DNA of 53,665 bases from an uncultured Bacilli bacterium (GTDB lineage: Bacteria; Bacillota_I; Bacilli_A; RF39; UBA660). The DNA is taken from assembly GCA_934102055.1 (NCBI GenBank), contig CAKOSE010000004.1, positions 1-53,665 of the forward strand. The letters are read 5' to 3'. Each line of letters starts with the position of its first letter. Position 1 is the stretch's first letter. Below, piece after piece: positions 13,393 to 53,553 of the stretch. A program made the translations under genes and the position numbers. The notes below the pieces were generated by a model, which did no database searches, was not told the DNA's origin, and was given only the letters and a program-made list of their open reading frames with translations.

Positions 13393-14538
13393 CTAGTCCT
13401 CTTCTTCTATATTCTTCAAATCTTCCTCTTTAGAGATATCTTCATAAGTTTTGAAAAAAACTTCTATATACATTTTACCATTTTTAATATACTTTTTCAA
13501 AGTTTTTTGTTTAATTATATATTCATCTTTTTCTAAAGTATCTAAAATATCTTTTTTAGCACGGACTTCTAATATTTTTTTTAGATTATTACTGGTATAT
13601 TTTTTAGACTTGGTTGTGTATTTTTTTTCTTGTTTTATATTTATACTTAATAAATCGTTTTTAAAGATATTACTTGTTTTATTACTTTGTATTTTTTTCC
13701 TTAGTTTAAATAAGATTATTTCTTTGTTATTGGTATTTAAAACAAGGCTTAGATTTCCTTTTTCTTTTGGGACTAGTTCTTTGTGATTTAAACTATCGTT
13801 TACTTTTACTATATACCAAACTTCTGCATAGACTTTTCCACTTGCTCTTACTTTAGAGACAATGTTTTCGTTTCTTATTATGTTTCCGCTTATAATAACA
13901 TCGCCTTTTTTTACGTAGTCATAAGTGTTTTTTTGAACTTGACCGCGTCTTGATTCAATTTTTCTTATATAACCACTTTTTTCTGCGACTATATCTTTAT
14001 AATCATTTTTATCATTTTTTATGTGATCAATTCTTTCTATTACTTTAACATTTAATAGAACTCCTTTTTGATCTAGTTCAATCCATTCTATTTTATCTTT
14101 GTTATTGTTTTTGATATTAAGACTAATTGTATTTAGGGATTTATAGTCTTTTTTTAAAGAATAAAGAGTAATTTTTTCTTTTTCTAAGTTATTAGAAATT
14201 GTTTGTTTTAAGGAATCACTATTGGTATCTATATTTATAAATAAAGTAAAATGAGAAATAAAGCATAGAAAAAAAACACTAATAATAAAAGTAATTAGAG
14301 ATATTTTGTATTTTTTCAAATTCATTAAGTACTTTTTCTTACCACATGTCTTTATTATATTTATTTGATAAGTTGTCTTTATTTTTTTTATTTTTTGATA
14401 ATCGCTATAGGATATTTTTATAAGGATGTTATTTTTTTGATATTTAATATCTAGTATATTTATATCTAGTTTAAGTATTTGTGTTAAGAATTTTCTTGTG
14501 TTTTTACCTTTTATCTCAGCCCAAAAATAATTAATCAT
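13393..14538 (-). CDS. yqfD: Sporulation protein YqfD (stage IV)
   Basis: About 380 aa with one central TM. It lies immediately downstream of yqfC, in conserved synteny with the ybeY-era cluster. Confidence 0.7.
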   Translation of the reverse strand: MINYFWAEIKGKNTRKFLTQILKLDINILDIKYQKNNILIKISYSDYQKIKKIKTTYQINIIKTCGKKKYLMNLKKYKISLITFIISVFFLCFISHFTLFINIDTNSDSLKQTISNNLEKEKITLYSLKKDYKSLNTISLNIKNNNKDKIEWIELDQKGVLLNVKVIERIDHIKNDKNDYKDIVAEKSGYIRKIESRRGQVQKNTYDYVKKGDVIISGNIIRNENIVSKVRASGKVYAEVWYIVKVNDSLNHKELVPKEKGNLSLVLNTNNKEIILFKLRKKIQSNKTSNIFKNDLLSINIKQEKKYTTKSKKYTSNNLKKILEVRAKKDILDTLEKDEYIIKQKTLKKYIKNGKMYIEVFFKTYEDISKEEDLKNIEEED

Positions 14539-14546
14539 TTTATCAC

Positions 14547-14777
14547 CTAAAATTCAATAGTTTTTATTTTGCCCAGAATCATTATTTCATGATTTTCTAG
14601 TTTTGTTACTCTTAAATCATTGCCTTTTATGTTTATGTAGCCGTTGCTAGTATTTATAAGAATTCTATCATCTTCGAAGACTAAAACTTCTTTAAATGAT
14701 TTTATACTTAGTTTTCCGTCTTCTAGTATGACTCTAAAATTGTTATCATAAACGATATCTCTTAGTTCTTTAAACAT
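14547..14777 (-). CDS. yqfC: Sporulation protein YqfC
   Basis: A 76-aa protein with the ILINTSNGYINIKGNDLRV and ILGKIKTIEF pattern typical of YqfC. Confidence 0.7.
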   Translation of the reverse strand: MFKELRDIVYDNNFRVILEDGKLSIKSFKEVLVFEDDRILINTSNGYINIKGNDLRVTKLENHEIMILGKIKTIEF

Positions 14778-14812
14778 AAACTCTCCTTTATTAAAAAGTA
14801 TGTTTACTATAC

Positions 14813-14838
14813 AAAAAAAAGACTAGCTTATGCTAATC
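14813..14838 (-). terminator. Rho-independent terminator closing the bacteriocin locus
   Basis: On the minus strand: GAUUAGC-AUAA-GCUAGUC (one G-U pair) followed by UUUUUUUU, directly after the stop of the small hydrophobic ORF. Confidence 0.65.
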
Positions 14839-14991
14839 TTATATACAGTTTGAAATTTCTCTTAGATAAGAGCCGAATGCTATTCCTAGAATATTTATGA
14901 AATATAATACTTTTATAACGATTGGTAATGAAATGACTGTAAAAACTATTTTTAACGCTTTTTTCTTGTTTAATCTCTTGATAAAGTGCAT
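14839..14991 (-). CDS. Candidate bacteriocin immunity protein (50 aa, hydrophobic), absent from the ORF track
   Basis: MHFIKRLNKKKALKIVFTVISLPIVIKVLYFINILGIAFGSYLREISNCI has a basic N-terminus and a hydrophobic core. The ATG overlaps the last 22 nt of peptide B, and the ORF ends right at the terminator. The SD (GAAGAA) is weak. Confidence 0.35.
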   Translation of the reverse strand: MHFIKRLNKKKALKIVFTVISLPIVIKVLYFINILGIAFGSYLREISNCI

Positions 14992-15173
14992 AATTTTTTT
15001 CTTCTTATTCTACGTATAGCAGAACCAAATTCTTGTCCGAAACCATATAGAACCTTAAAAGCTGAAGTGAAGGCGTTTATGACTGAGCCTGAAAACTTTG
15101 CTCCACCGATTACTTCTTTGGATTCTTCTATGGTTAATTTATTTACGACATTTGATTGGTCTAACATAACCAT
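14970..15173 (-). CDS. Double-glycine-leader bacteriocin precursor B (67 aa, predicted 43-aa cationic mature peptide)
   Basis: The leader MVMLDQSNVVNKLTIEESKEVIGG fits the GG-leader consensus (L-12, E-8, V-4, GG). The predicted mature peptide is AKFSGSVINAFTSAFKVLYGFGQEFGSAIRRIRRKKLCTLSRD. An AGGAG SD lies 6 nt upstream of the ATG at 15173. The gene is adjacent to the C39-ABC exporter. Confidence 0.7.
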   Translation of the reverse strand: MVMLDQSNVVNKLTIEESKEVIGGAKFSGSVINAFTSAFKVLYGFGQEFGSAIRRIRRKKLCTLSRD

Positions 15174-15276
15174 CAAGTGCTCCTATTCCAAAAATTATAC
15201 CTGCTATTCCTCCGAGTATTGCCCAAAGAGATACTCCACCTTCTATGTTTTTTAATTCTTTATCGCTTAACTTCAT
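15139..15276 (-). CDS. Double-glycine-leader bacteriocin precursor A (45 aa, predicted 31-aa hydrophobic GxxxG-rich mature peptide), absent from the ORF track
   Basis: MKLSDKELKNIEGG matches the LSxxELxxIxGG consensus exactly. The predicted mature peptide is VSLWAILGGIAGIIFGIGALDGYVRPIKCRK. The SD AAGGGGGA lies 9 nt upstream. The ATG lies 17 nt inside the 3' end of the ABC gene, and the 3' end overlaps the start of peptide B. Confidence 0.7.
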   Translation of the reverse strand: MKLSDKELKNIEGGVSLWAILGGIAGIIFGIGALDGYVRPIKCRK

Positions 15277-17314
15277 ATACTGTACCATCCCCCTTAAAAT
15301 TATACTTTTTAGTAAATAGATCTTTATTACTATTTCTATGTGATATTATTATTATTATTTTATCGTTATGTTTATTTATTATATTTTTTAATATTTTTCT
15401 CTCTTCTGAGATAGAAATTTCATTAAATACTTCATCCAAGATAAGTACATTTTTTAAATGTAATAGTCCTCTTGCTAGAATTATTTTTTTTCGTTCTCCC
15501 CCACTTAGATTCATACCATCTTCTTCTAAGAAGTAGTTAAGATTTGTTTTGTTTTTAGATAAGAATTCATTTAGTAAAGAAAGTTTACATACTTCATTTA
15601 TTTTATTTTTATCACTTGTTACTAGTTTGAAATTATCTAGTATAGTGCCTTGAAATAGTTCTTCGTTTTGACTTATGTATGTAATATTATTTCTGATAAA
15701 AGATAAATCTAAGTCTTTATGATTTATATTATCTATTAGGATTTTTCCTTCTTTTTGTGAGTAATACTTTAATAATAACTTCATCATGGTTGATTTTCCT
15801 ATTCCAGATTGTCCAGTTAAATAGATTCTTTCTCCTTTGTTGAAGTTACAGTTTATGTTATTTAGAATAACTTTATTATCGTTTTCGTATGTAACATTTT
15901 CGAATACAATACTTTTTATTTCAGAGTAGTTTGTTTTGTTAAACTTTTCTGGTTGCACTTCTAGAAGATCGAGTACTCTATCGGTAGAGGTTTGATATAC
16001 TTTATGAAGTACTATACTTTCCATTATGTTATCTAAAAGTCCCATGGTTAAATAAAAGAAACTTGAAAACAATATAATATCAAATAATTCCATTTTTAAT
16101 ATATGCATTATAAATATTGAAATAAAGATAAGCAAAACATAAAACGTATCTTCTAGTGAAGAAATAATAAAATTATAGACTGCATTAGTCTTGTTATATA
16201 TTTTGTTTTGAGTTAAAACATCTGTATATTTTTGGTTTAAGTTATTTGATATTTTTTTACTTATGTTTAAGTTTTTTATGGTTTCAAATGCTTTTATATT
16301 AGAAATAAGTAAGGATGTATAACTTATTTTATGGGTCTTATATTTAACAAATGAATCGTTTAGTTTGTATTGATAATTTTTTGTTATTATAAGTATTATT
16401 ACTACCATTAAGAAAAGAAATAGACCAACATAAATGTTTAGAAAACAAGTATAAATGATTACTACAAGTATAAGAATTAAATCTACTAGTGATAATATAA
16501 AAACTTTTGTTACTATTTCTTTAAAGATTTCTATATCTTCTACTACTGTCATTAATTCTCCAGACTGTTTTTGGATGAAGTACTTGTAAGGAAGATTTAG
16601 AATATGATTTATGACTTTGTTTGTTATATCTTTGTCTATTTTTGAGTTAAGTTTTATCATTAACCTATCTTTTATATAAGTTAAAATATTTTTAAAAAGA
16701 GCAAGTGATAAATATATAATACATATAATCAATAATAGATTAATTTTTTTATTATAAGTTAATACTAGTTTTAAATAATAATTAAAAATTAAAGATAAGA
16801 TAACTGTTACAACTGATAATATTACTGTCTTTGTGATGCTTTTTTTATTTGATTTTATTATTTTTAATATATGCTGTTTTAAAGGCTTTTCTTTTTTTGT
16901 TTTATTGTTTTTATTAAATAATAAAAAGATATTTGTGCTTATTTCATTGAATTCATCATAAGAAATTATTTTGATTCCATCTTCTGGATCCATCACTTTT
17001 AAGAGTTTTTTCTTTTTATCTTGTGCTAGTATAACTATAAAGTGAAACATATTTTTTCCTTTTATAGTATGAGCGATAGCGGGTAATTTTGAAAGATTAT
17101 TTATATCGGTTTTTATACCATAACTATCTATTCCATACGATTTACTTACTTTTATTAAATCATATGCTGTATAACCTCCATGTTTTTTATTCATATTACT
17201 TATTATTTTTTCCCTAGAGGGTTTTATTTTATAATACATGAGAATGGTCATTATACTTGCTACTGCACAATCATTATTATTAAGTTGTAACACATAGTCA
17301 TAATTTTTATTCAT
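15260..17314 (-). CDS. Bacteriocin-processing ABC transporter with N-terminal C39 peptidase domain
   Basis: C39 catalytic motif LNNNDCAVASIMTIL plus HFIVIL/DP. Six-TM domain. Walker A GQSGIGKST, signature LSGGERKK, Walker B ILILDE. RBS GAGGAGGATAAAATG. Confidence 0.9.
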   Translation of the reverse strand: MNKNYDYVLQLNNNDCAVASIMTILMYYKIKPSREKIISNMNKKHGGYTAYDLIKVSKSYGIDSYGIKTDINNLSKLPAIAHTIKGKNMFHFIVILAQDKKKKLLKVMDPEDGIKIISYDEFNEISTNIFLLFNKNNKTKKEKPLKQHILKIIKSNKKSITKTVILSVVTVILSLIFNYYLKLVLTYNKKINLLLIICIIYLSLALFKNILTYIKDRLMIKLNSKIDKDITNKVINHILNLPYKYFIQKQSGELMTVVEDIEIFKEIVTKVFILSLVDLILILVVIIYTCFLNIYVGLFLFLMVVIILIITKNYQYKLNDSFVKYKTHKISYTSLLISNIKAFETIKNLNISKKISNNLNQKYTDVLTQNKIYNKTNAVYNFIISSLEDTFYVLLIFISIFIMHILKMELFDIILFSSFFYLTMGLLDNIMESIVLHKVYQTSTDRVLDLLEVQPEKFNKTNYSEIKSIVFENVTYENDNKVILNNINCNFNKGERIYLTGQSGIGKSTMMKLLLKYYSQKEGKILIDNINHKDLDLSFIRNNITYISQNEELFQGTILDNFKLVTSDKNKINEVCKLSLLNEFLSKNKTNLNYFLEEDGMNLSGGERKKIILARGLLHLKNVLILDEVFNEISISEERKILKNIINKHNDKIIIIISHRNSNKDLFTKKYNFKGDGTVYEVKR

Positions 17315-17382
17315 TTTATCCTCCTCATATATATAATTACCAACAAGGAAGACTTTTTCCTTAATTTTTTGATAAAAAAGTT

Positions 17383-17416
17383 AAAAAAATAAAAAGATAA
17401 GTTTTAATCGCTTATC
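17383..17416 (-). terminator. Terminator of dnaE
   Basis: Stem GATAAG (last dnaE codons) / CTTATC, followed on the minus strand by TTTTTATTTTTTT. Confidence 0.55.
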
Positions 17417-20310
17417 TTAATTACTTCGTTACATATGATTTGGTATTCATTAAGTCTTCTTTCGACTTTTCCATTTACTTTAATTATTTCGTTTTTCTTT
17501 AGATTGTTTAATTGTTTGTATAGTTCGGGGAACATGACTAAAGTTGTATCTCCTGTATTGTCTGATGTTGTTACAAAGCACATAACTTCGTTTTTCTTGG
17601 TTATGATTTCTTTCTTTTTATCTATCATGACAATAACGCTTATTTTTTTGTTTAGATAGTTTTTTATATCTTTTATATCTGTTATATTGGTGTTGTTTAA
17701 TTTATATTTTTCAGTTTTATGACTAGTTAAATAAAAACCAAATACTTCTTTTTCTTTGTTTAGGATTTCTTCTTCTGGTAGTTCTGGTTTTAGTTCTATT
17801 TCTGGTTTTGCTAATGCACTATCGTCTAGTCCTATTGAAAGTTCTACGTAGTTTAAGATGTTATCTAAATTAGATATTAAGGTGTTTATGTTATAGAAAT
17901 TATCAAAGACGTGGGCATATATTAGGGATTCAAGTATTTTTCTATTGTTTGTTTTTGGATAAGTTCTTTTTAGGAAGTCATATATATCTTTATAAGGGGT
18001 ATTTCTTTTTTCTACGATATAATTTGATATAATACTACCGACATTTCTTATTCCTCCGAAGGGATATATAATTGTGTTTTCTTTGAATGTGAATTTATCT
18101 TCTTTGCTTAAATTTATATCTGGTGCTAGGACTTTGATACCTAGTTTTTTTACTTCGTTTAGGTATTCTTTTGTTTTTTCTTCACTTCCTATGACGCTTG
18201 ATAATAAATTGGCATAGAATTCTTTTGGAAAGTAGTATTTTAAATAGGCCATTTTATATGCTACTATGGAATAGGAAACTGAATGACTTTTGTTAAAACC
18301 ATATCCTGCGAAGGCAAGTATTAGATCGAATAGTTCTTTGGCTTTTTCTTTTGTTTTATTGTTTTTTAGGGATTTTTCTATGAATTTTTCTTCTTCTCCT
18401 TTTAAGATATCGTACTTTTTCTTACTCATTGCACGTCTTAAGAGATCGGCTTCTGCTAAGGTGTATCCTGCATATTTTCTTGCAATTAACATGATTTGTT
18501 CTTGATAGACTATTATTCCATATGTTTCTTCTAGTATTTCTTTTAAGTCATTATCTAAATATGTTATCTTTTCTTTACCTTCTTTTCTTTTTATGAAGGA
18601 TGGGATGTTTTTAGCAGGACCTGGTCTAAAGAGTGCTATGGCATTACAAAGATCTATGAAACTATCTGGTTTTAAATCTTTTAGAAATCTTCTCATACCA
18701 TCTGATTCGAACTGGAATATACCAGTAGTTTCTCCTTTTTTAAATAAATCAATTACGTTTTTGTCATCTAGGGGAATTTTGTTGATGTCTAGTTTTTTTC
18801 CTACGTTTGCTTCTATATCTTTTATGACGTTATCTATTATAGATAGGTTTTTTATTCCTAAGAAGTCCATTTTTATAAGTCCCAGTTCTTCTAGGTAGTC
18901 CATGGTATATTCAGTTAGGTTTATTTCATCGCTTTGTTTTATTGGTAAGACTTCGTAAAGTGGTTTATAACTTATGACAATACCTGCGGCATGGATACTT
19001 GTATGTCTTTTATTACCTTCGATTAAGTTTACTATATTATATAAAAGTTTTAGTTTATCATCGTTTTCAATCATTGTGTTTACTTCTTTATCACTGTGTT
19101 TAAGCTCTTTTAAAGTGCCTTTGAATGGTATTTTTTTGCAGATTATATCTATATACCGAGGTGAGATGTTTAGAACTCTTCCAACGTCTCTTACTGAGGC
19201 TCTTCCTCCGAGGGTTCCAAAAGTAATAATACCTGCGACGTTATCTTTTCCATATTTTTCTTTTACGTATTCTATGACTTGTCCTCTTTTTGTATCGGGG
19301 AAATCTGTATCTATATCGGGCATTGTTACTCTTTCGGGATTTAGGAATCTTTCGAATAAAAGGTTATATTTTATGGGATCTACATCTGTAATTCCTAAAC
19401 AGTATGAAACAAGGGAACCTGCGGCTGAACCTCTTCCTGGGCCTACTAAGATATTGTTTTGTTTTGCATATTTTATATAGTCATATACTACTAAAAAATA
19501 ATCTTCAAAATGCATTTTTAATATAATATCAAGTTCATATTTTAGTCTTTCGAGATAGGTTTTGTTTACATTACCATTTAATCTTCTTATAAGACCTTTT
19601 TTACTAAGATTACATAGAAATTCTTTAGAGTTAGGGACATCATACTTAGGCATGAATAGTTCTTTTTTAAAGGAATAGTTACACATATTGGCTATTTTAT
19701 TAGTATTTGCAATGGACTTATTGCTAACTCTTGAAAGGGCTTCTTCGTAAGTAAATAAGTAATTGTCTTGATAGATAAATTCTATTTTATCGCTGATTGT
19801 TTTTCCATCTCTTATCATAAAGATATAGGGTAAGTATTTATATAGGGCTTTTTCTAAATATAGGGTTTTGTTTATGAAGACGGTATTATATTCTTTGTAT
19901 TTATCTTCTTCTATTTTATTAGAGACTCCTATAAAGATATCATAAAAGTAAGGATTATATTCGTTATAGGTATCTATATCAAAGCAAATAAGAATTAGGT
20001 CTTTGGATAGTTTTATTATATCTTCTTTGGATAGGTTTTCTTTGTTTTTTAGGGTTTCTATTTTTACTAAGTTATAATAACCTTCACTAGTTTTTGCTAG
20101 TAAGATATATTTGTTAAGATCGAGTCCTATTAAGGGTTTTATACCGGCTTTTTTAAATTTGTGAGTAACTTCCATAGTGCCATATAGGTTATCATCCACT
20201 ATAGCACATGAGGAAATGTTTTTTTTCTTTAAATTATCTATTAAATCGTCTATTTTGATTAGACTTGATAATAAACTATAATCGGTTTTTATGTAAAGTG
20301 GTGTGTACAT
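17404..20310 (-). CDS. dnaE: DNA polymerase III alpha subunit, DnaE type
   Basis: N-terminal PHP domain, the FLNPERVTMPDIDTDF palm motif, GYGFNKSHS, an HhH region and a C-terminal OB fold. 968 aa. Confidence 0.9.
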   Translation of the reverse strand: MYTPLYIKTDYSLLSSLIKIDDLIDNLKKKNISSCAIVDDNLYGTMEVTHKFKKAGIKPLIGLDLNKYILLAKTSEGYYNLVKIETLKNKENLSKEDIIKLSKDLILICFDIDTYNEYNPYFYDIFIGVSNKIEEDKYKEYNTVFINKTLYLEKALYKYLPYIFMIRDGKTISDKIEFIYQDNYLFTYEEALSRVSNKSIANTNKIANMCNYSFKKELFMPKYDVPNSKEFLCNLSKKGLIRRLNGNVNKTYLERLKYELDIILKMHFEDYFLVVYDYIKYAKQNNILVGPGRGSAAGSLVSYCLGITDVDPIKYNLLFERFLNPERVTMPDIDTDFPDTKRGQVIEYVKEKYGKDNVAGIITFGTLGGRASVRDVGRVLNISPRYIDIICKKIPFKGTLKELKHSDKEVNTMIENDDKLKLLYNIVNLIEGNKRHTSIHAAGIVISYKPLYEVLPIKQSDEINLTEYTMDYLEELGLIKMDFLGIKNLSIIDNVIKDIEANVGKKLDINKIPLDDKNVIDLFKKGETTGIFQFESDGMRRFLKDLKPDSFIDLCNAIALFRPGPAKNIPSFIKRKEGKEKITYLDNDLKEILEETYGIIVYQEQIMLIARKYAGYTLAEADLLRRAMSKKKYDILKGEEEKFIEKSLKNNKTKEKAKELFDLILAFAGYGFNKSHSVSYSIVAYKMAYLKYYFPKEFYANLLSSVIGSEEKTKEYLNEVKKLGIKVLAPDINLSKEDKFTFKENTIIYPFGGIRNVGSIISNYIVEKRNTPYKDIYDFLKRTYPKTNNRKILESLIYAHVFDNFYNINTLISNLDNILNYVELSIGLDDSALAKPEIELKPELPEEEILNKEKEVFGFYLTSHKTEKYKLNNTNITDIKDIKNYLNKKISVIVMIDKKKEIITKKNEVMCFVTTSDNTGDTTLVMFPELYKQLNNLKKNEIIKVNGKVERRLNEYQIICNEVIKISD

Positions 20311-51126: not shown

Positions 51127-53553
51127 CTATTCTTTTGATATTATCCAATATCTTGTTGTAGCCGGAACAACAACCTCTTCAAAATCAAACAATTTAGAAT
51201 CATTACTTTTATTAGGATCTTGAACAAAAACTTGTCCGTCCTTATGAGAAGTTAAAACTATAAAATGACCACCGCTGGTAAATGGTTTTTTATTAGTTGC
51301 AGCAATAACTAGTTTTTTGCCACTATTTAATGCTATTAAAACTTCTTTATTGTTCGCTTCACTAACATCCAGTTGTTTAACACTCAAACCATATTTTTTC
51401 CCAGCTGAAGCAAAAAATGCATGTTTAGTTCCTGTTCCAGGTACGTAAAAATCATTCTTACATGAATACTTAGCCATTTCTTCTGGATTGTGTTCTTCGC
51501 CTAACAAAGAAGAAACTACAATAGCCATAGCAGTTGGCCCACAGCCAGAAACTGCAACATTATGCTCTCCTTTACCAGAACAATAAGCAACATTAGGGTA
51601 ATCACTTTGATAATATACTCTTATATTACCGTTGAATCCATCTCCTCCAATTGAACAAGTATTACCACCACCATTTATTTCTATACCATCCGCATAAAAA
51701 TATTCAAGTATTTCTTTATAAGTTTTACCTTGATCAGCTAAATAAGCGGCATAATTTTGACTCATTCCTCTACCATGTCCTGCGTCCTGTTTTGTTGTTA
51801 AATATTTTTCTGGCATAGTATAAGTTACTTTTTCAGAACCAGGAACTTTAATCGATGAACCTGTACATGAACCACTACTACATGTTCCTAAGAAAGAACT
51901 GTATTCAGAACTTATGGTATCTCCATTTAATGTAATCACTGAGTTTCCACCCTCTGAATAAGCTTTTTTTATTTCATCACTAACAAGTTCCATTTTTATT
52001 GCTGTTTGATCATATTCTGAATTTCTAATAGAGGAAGAACAATTATTTGTTCTTTTTATTGTATAAGTTTTGGCAGCAACCATTTGAGCTTTGATTGCCT
52101 CTGCTCCAACACTTGGATTTTCTGCACCCACAACCATCTGTATATAATCATCAAGACTAAACGTTCCAATCGGAAATTTATCAGGATCCTTATTATAACC
52201 ACTTGTATCGCCTTCTGGTCCTGGCACTACTGTAACACCATTAGGACAATAATCTTCAGATGAACTACTTGAACCAGTACTAGATACACAACAATTAGCA
52301 GAAGATGAACTACTACTAGTAGAAACATAACTATCGCTTGTATCATTAGCTTGAGATGCACTATCTCCTGCAAGTTCTCCTTTCCATTTGCTTCCACATT
52401 GGTTTTTGAAGTTTTCTCCTACAAGAGAAGAAACATTTTCTGCACCATTTTTTTCGTCTACACCAAAATATTGGTTTTGTAAATCATATTGTCTTTGGCC
52501 ATTATAAACAAACTCAAAATGTAAATGTGGTCCAGTAGAGTGTCCAGTATTCCCAGATTTTGCAATCATTTGTCCTTTTGCAACTTTATCCCCCACTTTT
52601 ACCAAAAGTTCTGAGTTATGTCCATATCTAGTAGAAATAGCATCGGTATGGGCAATTACTACAGAATTACCATAACCCCCTTCGACTCCAGCAAGTGTTA
52701 CGGTACCGGCTTGTACTGCATAAACAGGTGTTCCAGTCGGAACCCCTATATCTATACCTTCGTGTTGGCTTCCCCATCTAGGACCTGACCAACTTGTGAT
52801 TAGACCTTTATTAGCAAGTGGATGCTGAGAAGAACATGCAAAGTCTAACATATCTGCTGAACCTGTATAGCCCTCACCATTATAAGTACTGCTTCCTGAG
52901 GTACCACATAATGCTGAAAAACTAGCACCTGCTAAAGCAGCAAACAAAATATTGAATAAAAATAGTAATAATATTATCATTGGAACAATAATTATTATTG
53001 CAATTTTAGCTTGTATAGGTAAAATAGTCCATATTTTTTTTATACCTGTTTTAAAAGATTTGCCAATTTTTTCTTTTATTCCACCAGTTTTCTCTTTTCC
53101 AAGTGCTCCTTGCTGAGCTCCTCTTTTTCTGTTGAAAGGATTTAATCTAGAGGCTAAACCACCCTTTTCTTTTGAATTATTTTCCTTTTTTTCACCTGGT
53201 TTTTTATCATTTGCATCTCTAGGATCTTTACTTTTTTTATCACCTGCTCCTGGTAAAGGATTTTTATGTTCATTATCTTTCTTTTTATCTTTGTTGCCAT
53301 CTTTTGAATCTTTTTTATCTTTATCTTTTTTATCTAACCCATCTTTTTTCTTTTTATCATCTGGTTTTTCTTGTCCTCGCATTGGATTTCTTCCAAGGCC
53401 TGCATGGACTCCTCTCATTAAATCAGCTGCTGTGTTTTTAATATTTTGAGCAAAACCACCTCCATTGGCTCTCGGAAAGTTTTGCTCTTCCATTTGTTCT
53501 GGTTCTTCATTCATAATACCTTGATTATTAAAAGAATTATCTTCATTATTCAT
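51127..53553 (-). CDS. Membrane-anchored three-module cell-wall hydrolase: M23 (LytM) peptidase + SpoIID/LytB-like domain + C39-like cysteine peptidase domain
   Basis: Module order: a basic K/D-rich cytoplasmic tail of about 170 aa, then a TM. M23 motifs are HEGIDIGVPTGTPVYA and GNTGHSTGPHLHFE. A Ser-rich linker follows. SpoIID-like motifs are AIKAQMVAAKTYT and GHGRGMSQNYAAYLADQGKTYKEILEYFY. C39-like motifs are VSGCGPTAMAIVVSSL and GGHFIVLT. Confidence 0.8.
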   Translation of the reverse strand: MNNEDNSFNNQGIMNEEPEQMEEQNFPRANGGGFAQNIKNTAADLMRGVHAGLGRNPMRGQEKPDDKKKKDGLDKKDKDKKDSKDGNKDKKKDNEHKNPLPGAGDKKSKDPRDANDKKPGEKKENNSKEKGGLASRLNPFNRKRGAQQGALGKEKTGGIKEKIGKSFKTGIKKIWTILPIQAKIAIIIIVPMIILLLFLFNILFAALAGASFSALCGTSGSSTYNGEGYTGSADMLDFACSSQHPLANKGLITSWSGPRWGSQHEGIDIGVPTGTPVYAVQAGTVTLAGVEGGYGNSVVIAHTDAISTRYGHNSELLVKVGDKVAKGQMIAKSGNTGHSTGPHLHFEFVYNGQRQYDLQNQYFGVDEKNGAENVSSLVGENFKNQCGSKWKGELAGDSASQANDTSDSYVSTSSSSSSANCCVSSTGSSSSSEDYCPNGVTVVPGPEGDTSGYNKDPDKFPIGTFSLDDYIQMVVGAENPSVGAEAIKAQMVAAKTYTIKRTNNCSSSIRNSEYDQTAIKMELVSDEIKKAYSEGGNSVITLNGDTISSEYSSFLGTCSSGSCTGSSIKVPGSEKVTYTMPEKYLTTKQDAGHGRGMSQNYAAYLADQGKTYKEILEYFYADGIEINGGGNTCSIGGDGFNGNIRVYYQSDYPNVAYCSGKGEHNVAVSGCGPTAMAIVVSSLLGEEHNPEEMAKYSCKNDFYVPGTGTKHAFFASAGKKYGLSVKQLDVSEANNKEVLIALNSGKKLVIAATNKKPFTSGGHFIVLTSHKDGQVFVQDPNKSNDSKLFDFEEVVVPATTRYWIISKE

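Follow-up and report, generated by a model that had tools for sequence, protein, structure and literature searches.

A minus-strand run of four overlapping genes, encoding a C39-peptidase ABC exporter and three small peptides that we call A, B and C, lies within the window analysed here, a 53,665-nucleotide stretch of DNA from an uncultured Bacilli bacterium. Judged by its sequence features, this operon is probably a class IIb-like two-peptide bacteriocin system, with C as the immunity protein. An earlier note on the same DNA had put forward the two-peptide reading of A and B. This reading is supported here by the adjoining genes of two dissimilar GG-leader peptides, by a C39-ABC exporter with an intact catalytic triad, and by an invariant GxxxG motif in each peptide. 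Peptide C, the third small gene of the locus, was missing from that description. The genome surveyed comprises 1.09 Mb on 42 contigs and is 91.7% complete.

Organization of the operon and its products

The operon is flanked by dnaE on the upstream side and by yqfC and yqfD downstream, and the exporter, A, B and C are the only genes between dnaE and yqfC. Each gene overlaps the next one, by 17 nt for the exporter and A, 35 nt for A and B, and 22 nt for B and C. The sole terminator-like site in positions 14500-17600 is an intrinsic-type hairpin followed by a T-run, which shares its first two bases with the stop codon of C (14839-14841). Upstream of the exporter, a second hairpin spans the stop codon of dnaE; it was read by eye, and the terminator scan made no call there. 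Because of the overlaps, the terminator at the end of C and the upstream hairpin at the dnaE stop, the operon looks self-contained and translationally coupled. No lanthipeptide or radical-SAM genes adjoin it, no classical accessory gene of the LcnD/HlyD type is found near it in the window, and no kinase, response regulator or peptide-pheromone regulatory gene lies in or beside it.

Table 1. Coordinates of the operon, its flanks and other features discussed in the text (positions in the window unless a locus or contig is named).
Feature	Position	Strand	Description
dnaE	17404-20310		upstream flank
Intergenic region 5' of exporter	17315..17418	-	AAGATAAG/CTTATCTT hairpin and T-run, AT-rich stretch, GAGGAGG before exporter ATG
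Peptidase-containing ABC exporter	15260..17314	-	684 aa; C39 peptidase, 6-TM ABC membrane domain, ATPase
Peptide A precursor	15139..15276	-	45 aa; ATG 15276, stop 15139-15141
AGGAG ribosome-binding site of B	15180..15184	-	inside A coding sequence; 6 nt before ATG 15173
Peptide B precursor	14970..15173	-	67 aa; ATG 15173, stop 14970-14972
Peptide C	14839..14991	-	50 aa; candidate immunity protein
Terminator-like hairpin and T-run	14819..14840	-	intrinsic type
yqfC	14547-14777	-	PF07873 (yqfC/YabP); downstream flank
yqfD	13393-14538	-	PF06898, 191.9 bits; downstream flank
808-aa protein	51127-53553	-	C-terminal C39-like domain
150-160 aa membrane protein, example loci	L020:5357-5842	-	
	L024:5326-5814	-	
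	L025:5318-5773	-	
	L027:4435-4920	+	
	L028:4431-4886	+	
LytTR-domain protein	G000:C3:21792-22073	-	269-aa frame on another contig; no receiver-domain match there

The exporter matches the Pfam models PF03412, PF00664 and PF00005 (Peptidase_C39, ABC_membrane and ABC_tran) and scores 254.6 bits with TIGR01193, under the model cut-off of 523.85. Its catalytic triad (Cys16, His91 and Asp109) is intact, Gln10 is also present, and the ATPase motifs are found with Walker A at residue 501, LSGG at 603 and Walker B at 623. In many genera a membrane protein of 150-160 aa sits between the exporter and A, and the genus of the window is without it. This protein could be a miniature accessory or immunity protein. 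We also considered it as a disulfide helper of the PedC/thioredoxin type and rejected this, as it has no Pfam match and is missing from the window's genus. Elsewhere in the window, an 808-aa protein has an N-terminus of low complexity that is rich in Lys and Asp, together with a TM helix, a segment resembling an M23 peptidase, and a C39-like domain at its C-terminus (PF03412, 29.5 bits); its counterpart in genome G002 is a 1073-aa frame. We take the protein to be a probable cell-wall hydrolase rather than another exporter of bacteriocins.

The leader of peptide A, MKLSDKELKNIEGG, consists of 14 residues ending in EGG, or of 18 if translation starts at the upstream ATG at 15288. The predicted mature peptide is a hydrophobic helix of 31 residues with a net charge of +3, three GxxxG motifs and one Cys, and its C-terminal end is DGYVRPIKCRK. 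Peptide A scores 30.8 bits with TIGR03949, the class IIb model of the lactobin A/cerein 7B family (cut-off 21.5), which is also matched by 21 of 23 A homologues. The lactococcin G/enterocin 1071 models NF038035 (alpha) and NF038034 (beta) reach 16.7 and 14.5 bits with A, in the leader region only and below their cut-off of 37.

The start codon of B lies 35 nt inside A in a different frame. The ORF listing stretches B to a TTG at 15176, and the ATG in Table 1 is the better start. Its leader, MVMLDQSNVVNKLTIEESKEVIGG, comprises 24 residues ending in IGG, and is followed by a predicted mature peptide of 43 residues (AKFSGS...KKLCTLSRD) that is amphipathic, with a hydrophobic moment of 0.45-0.68, a net charge of +7, one GxxxG and one Cys. 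On reading the sequence, we found that the earlier note had correctly given the coordinates, leader and mature sequence of B, the AGGAG at 6 nt and the frame relation to A. B has no family match in Pfam, NCBIfam, PDB sequences or the ESM Atlas. TIGR03949 matches one of 24 B homologues (E 0.002), the B of the window being without a match, and neither NF038034 nor NF038035 matches B. A database search with B returned at least 1900 homologues, almost all of them unnamed. In PDB sequence searches with A and B the leaders alone found matches, to the PCAT1 substrate CtA and to the carnobacteriocin B2 precursor. Both leaders match bacteriocin signal models, and the GG is invariant in both alignments.

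We performed an AlphaFold2 prediction on P0121, a homologue in which A and B appear fused, using a 12-row paired alignment. The model contains, at moderate confidence, two helices, at residues 18-39 in the A part and 66-96 in the B part, with a pLDDT of about 80 in the helices and a pTM of 0.51. The B part is thus predicted as a single long helix.

Peptide C has a Lys-rich N-terminus, one predicted TM helix, one GxxxG and the C-terminal sequence GIAFGSYLREISNCI, and it matches no Pfam or NCBIfam model. When an alignment of 21 C homologues was compared with the B profile using hhalign, the C-terminal 31 columns of C aligned with a probability of 87% and an E value of 3.9e-6. The likeness is to the C-terminal half of B and consists of GxxxG, Ser/Thr, Arg and often Cys. 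An ORF resembling C follows B in 69 of the 119 loci parsed, and none was recognised in the other 50. Short immunity proteins of class IIb systems include CbnZ (42 aa), BrcI (53 aa), EnkIaz (52 aa) and AbpIM (55 aa) (PMC6957408). C resembles them in its size, in its single predicted TM helix and in its position directly downstream of both structural genes, and it is a candidate immunity protein of the producer. Its C-terminal half, in addition, is recognisable as a copy of the GxxxG-Arg(-Cys) segment of B, a trait for which the comparison covers C alone.

Distribution and inheritance of the peptide pair

Used as a single query, B detects homologues in 33 of the 36 family genomes scanned. A profile built from 24 sequences finds B in 286 of 301 family genomes, which corresponds to 221 of the 227 high-quality genomes and 208 of the 214 genera, mostly as a single copy. 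The profile of A finds its target in 98 of 101 high-quality family genomes. In 116 of the 119 loci parsed with HMMs, A immediately precedes B on the same strand. These numbers bear out that B is a real gene, and a chance ORF is excluded by the conservation. The earlier note had also raised the case in which only one of the two ORFs is conserved in homologous loci; A and B are instead kept together.

We also considered that A and B might be one frameshifted gene. This was rejected, as in every locus A and B form distinct genes, each with a leader of its own. Outside the window's genus, A frequently terminates at a TAG that B follows in the same frame; the DNA at this junction is TAGGAGGT, in which the stop codon of A is fused to the ribosome-binding site of B (for example L035:2541-2560 and L041:2673-2692). 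Database gene calls with a Gln at the junction appear as A-B fusions, in five clusters (P0090, P0114, P0119, P0121 and P0127). Where the junction contains a Trp (P0051, P0122 and P0186), the codon is probably a TGA stop translated under code 4.

Assembly gaps account for some of the apparent absences: genome G002 is also without yqfD, and G276 breaks off at the end of a contig. At least two high-quality genomes, G270 and G324, have none of the three, A, B or the C39 exporter, and the module is therefore probably not essential. At two loci, L082 (G315:C22) and L121 (G209:C1), B is present with no recognisable A within about 450 nt upstream; in G209, a single-contig genome, A may have been displaced or lost. 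Across the class, the B profile matches 20 of 20 sampled genomes of its own family, clearly matches the one genome sampled from one other family, and weakly matches one of 12 genomes from another. In the remaining 25 of the 27 other families sampled, about 150 genomes yielded no match. In the single-query scan, a second family of the order was represented by one genome, and B was found there as well. The contig CAVFIB010000010.1 (L031) encodes a B that is 97% identical to that of the window by tblastn; it was deposited as 'Bacteroidaceae bacterium', its relatives being labelled Bacilli or Mycoplasma, and the label is probably that of a mislabelled MAG.

Between the window and its relatives, mature A is 58-81% identical within the genus and 45-68% in other genera, and mature B 42-87% and 38-48%, respectively. 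The corresponding values are 55-62% and 21-36% for the exporter, 50-58% and 28-39% for YqfD, and 74-84% and 50-66% for Era. The cargo peptides are thus at least as constrained as their exporter. Over the same loci, divergence correlates with that of Era with a Spearman rho of 0.95 for the exporter, 0.78 for A and 0.67 for B, from nine data points that are not independent. In many genera the operon is located in a housekeeping neighbourhood that includes rpsU, yqeY, yqfC, yqfD, ybeY, era and recO. Taken together, the identity levels, the divergence that tracks Era and the shared neighbourhood indicate that the operon is old and has been inherited vertically under purifying selection. Part of the conservation of the B leader within the window's genus (MxMLDQxNV) is due to its overlap with the codons of the conserved DGYVRPxKC of A. 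The genes yqfC and yqfD, which are associated with sporulation, are present in this 1.09 Mb genome; in the window's genus the operon immediately precedes them, and in several others it is nearby.

Invariant residues and the paired cysteines

An alignment of 117 unique A/B pairs revealed that the only mature positions with 100% invariance are G33xxxG37 and C44 in A, and G46xxxG50 and C62 in B. In mature numbering, the two motifs are G18xxxG22 of A and G22xxxG26 of B. The next most conserved positions are P41 of A (99%) and R54/R55 of B (96%). The invariant Cys is located one to five residues from the C-terminus in each peptide of these pairs and is flanked by Lys/Arg in both. Its loss was seen in none of 116 A/B pairs. 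Among the 119 parsable sequences of the best 120 database homologues of B, the mature part has exactly one Cys in 115, and this Cys is two to three residues from the C-terminus in 111; the CTLSRD tail of the window's B is an outlier in length only. Two rare clusters of the B family, P0134 and P0219, are without the C-terminal Cys and have no close relative in 400 family genomes. The earlier note had described exactly one Cys in each mature peptide. This holds for the window, whereas some A homologues carry extra Cys; the C-terminal Cys of A is universal.

The start of C touches the Cys codon of B. In the window the ATG of C straddles the Leu-Cys codons of B (TTA TGC giving ATG), and in 61 of 119 loci, the window included, the start codon of the C-like ORF is made up of the final base of the codon before the Cys and the TG of the Cys codon itself. 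The invariance of the B Cys might then reflect nothing but the need for its TG in the start codon of C, the thiol being irrelevant, which we regard as highly improbable: the Cys is kept in 119 of 119 loci, although a C-like ORF is missing from 50 of these and the triplet across the two codons differs from ATG in 41, and the Cys of A is equally invariant with no overlapping C at all. The overlap is thus rejected as the sole cause, and for the same reasons the thiol of the B Cys itself appears to be under selection.

The earlier note had raised an inter-chain disulfide between A and B. The invariant, Lys/Arg-flanked C-terminal Cys in both peptides argues for such a bond. The lack of matches to DsbA-like (PF13462) and DsbB (PF02600) models in the 91.7%-complete genome, together with the presumed anoxic habitat of the organism, argues against it. 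On balance we lean somewhat away from a disulfide, while holding it to be a realistic possibility. In the literature searched, we found no description of an inter-chain disulfide in two-peptide bacteriocins. The mutual information between A and B columns peaked at 0.204 (95th percentile after shuffling, 0.189), a value at the edge of the null; several of the top pairs, with values at that same edge, lie in or beside the two GxxxG motifs.

Relation to known systems and possible functions

Class IIb comprises the unmodified bacteriocins made of two peptides, among them lactococcin G, enterocin 1071 and plantaricins EF and JK (PMC2850506). Their peptides are made as preforms with a double-glycine leader of 15-30 residues that is removed by a dedicated ABC transporter, both peptides contain helix-helix motifs of the GxxxG (or AxxxA/SxxxS) type, and the immunity gene is part of the same operon, with no dedicated modification enzymes (PMC2850506). 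The operon described here resembles these systems in its adjoining genes for two dissimilar peptides with GG leaders, its predicted leader-cleaving C39 exporter, the GxxxG in both predicted helices, the cationic tails, the small membrane protein encoded downstream and the lack of modification enzymes. It differs from them in its mature peptides, which have no similarity to theirs, the NF038034 and NF038035 matches being confined to the leader at 14-17 bits against 37. It also differs in the invariant C-terminal Cys of both A and B.

With the TIGR03949 family, A has in common a GG leader and, behind it, a hydrophobic segment rich in Gly. However, the model spans residues 2-37 of A, so that the conserved DGYxRPxKC tail lies outside it, and B lies outside any family. 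The exporter has the same domain order as PCAT1 of Clostridium thermocellum, which exports CtA (PDB 6v9z and 7s5j), and the leaders of A and B match PDB sequences with E values of 0.17-1.3. These matches are weak and confined to the leader, and the cargo peptides are unrelated. Bacteriocins usually have a patchy distribution and evolve fast. A and B, in contrast, are family-wide, vertically inherited and under purifying selection, and the window's locus has no accessory or quorum-sensing genes.

In the class IIb-like reading that we favour, the four overlapping genes would be translated together in a fixed proportion. The cytoplasmic C39 domain would cleave A and B after Gly-Gly, and the exporter would secrete a 31-residue A and a 43-residue B. 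In the target membrane, the predicted helices of A and B would pack through their invariant GxxxG motifs to form one membrane-penetrating unit. The cationic C-terminal tails, each with one invariant Cys, would then end side by side, where the two thiols may form an inter-chain disulfide or cooperate in some other way. C would stay in the membrane of the producer, displaying a copy of the GxxxG-Arg segment of B as an anchored decoy, and would most likely protect the cell by competing for A or for a receptor. More speculatively, an addictive toxin/immunity effect may have fixed the operon across more than 200 genera, if cells that have lost it fall victim to related cells that still carry it. 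Export, cleavage, helix pairing, killing, immunity by C and the disulfide are all predicted steps of this scheme.

Several observations count against a bacteriocin. The distribution is that of a core gene and mostly single copy, the operon is located in a housekeeping cluster, the mature peptides are more conserved than the exporter, LcnD/HlyD-type accessory and pheromone regulatory genes are lacking nearby, and 50 of 119 loci have no recognisable C. As the main alternative, A and B may be a conserved heterodimer, exported or inserted into the membrane, that serves the physiology of the producer, with C as an anchored third subunit or a regulator. It could, for example, act in controlled membrane permeabilisation or lysis linked to sporulation, or in an interaction with the envelope or the host. 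The family-wide, vertical core inheritance is atypical of a bacteriocin and suggests such a non-weapon function. Reduced genomes tend to lose dispensable genes, and the operon is retained in genomes of about 1 Mb at the frequencies given above, some of the absences being assembly gaps. Its syntenic position beside yqfC/yqfD is kept, mature A, with an overall identity of 45-81%, comes close to Era (50-84%) and exceeds the exporter (21-62%), and divergence tracks Era for all three proteins. Beyond its own family, B gives a clear match in just one sampled family of the class and a weak one in another, apart from the one genome of the second family in its order noted above. Nevertheless, every recognisable feature of the operon belongs to class IIb (PMC2850506), A passes the TIGR03949 cut-off, and G270 and G324 do without A, B and the exporter. 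No precedent is known to us for a peptide pair of this kind acting on its own producer. Overall, we consider a function of this kind rather unlikely.

The earlier note had offered a further alternative, that one of the peptides is a signalling pheromone. Most plausibly this would be B, secreted as the signal, leaving the other peptide as the sole effector. GG-leader peptides exported by C39-ABC pumps do include the pheromones ComC and BlpC, and a BlpC cluster is a weak look-alike of B (score 0.88). The genome also encodes one LytTR-domain protein and, on contigs C17, C9 and C1, three HATPase_c_5 kinases. However, the LytTR-domain protein is on another contig and there is no kinase or response regulator in or beside the operon. 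A and B, both long and conserved, share the invariant GxxxG and C-terminal Cys, which argues for one unit, and B, at 43 residues, amphipathic and with a charge of +7, is unlike the known short pheromones. B is moreover conserved across genera, whereas pheromones usually diversify into pherotypes. We thus do not favour this alternative and judge it very improbable.

The class IIb kind is already known, and A would be annotated as such automatically. For B, C, the paired invariant Cys and the family-wide vertical conservation, no description was found in the literature searched. A bolder reading would make A and B a Cys-Cys-linked heterodimeric exported peptide, inherited vertically as a lineage-defining core trait of more than 200 genera in an uncultured family of gut Bacilli with genomes of about 1 Mb, and kept because it is addictive, as a toxin with an immunity mimic derived from it, or for the cell's own physiology. 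We regard this as doubtful. If true, it would give a class II bacteriocin-like system a new mode of existence, other than that of an ordinary dispensable weapon. If the class IIb-like reading holds, the pair would be the first two-peptide bacteriocin whose chains are tied together, or act, through a conserved Cys pair. C would be a candidate immunity protein built from a piece of the toxin, which suggests immunity by competition for the partner helix. At least 1900 unnamed B homologues could then be annotated. Finally, a whole uncultured family of gut bacteria with tiny genomes would have a bacteriocin-like system as part of its core gene set, which would bear on how such bacteria compete or scavenge.
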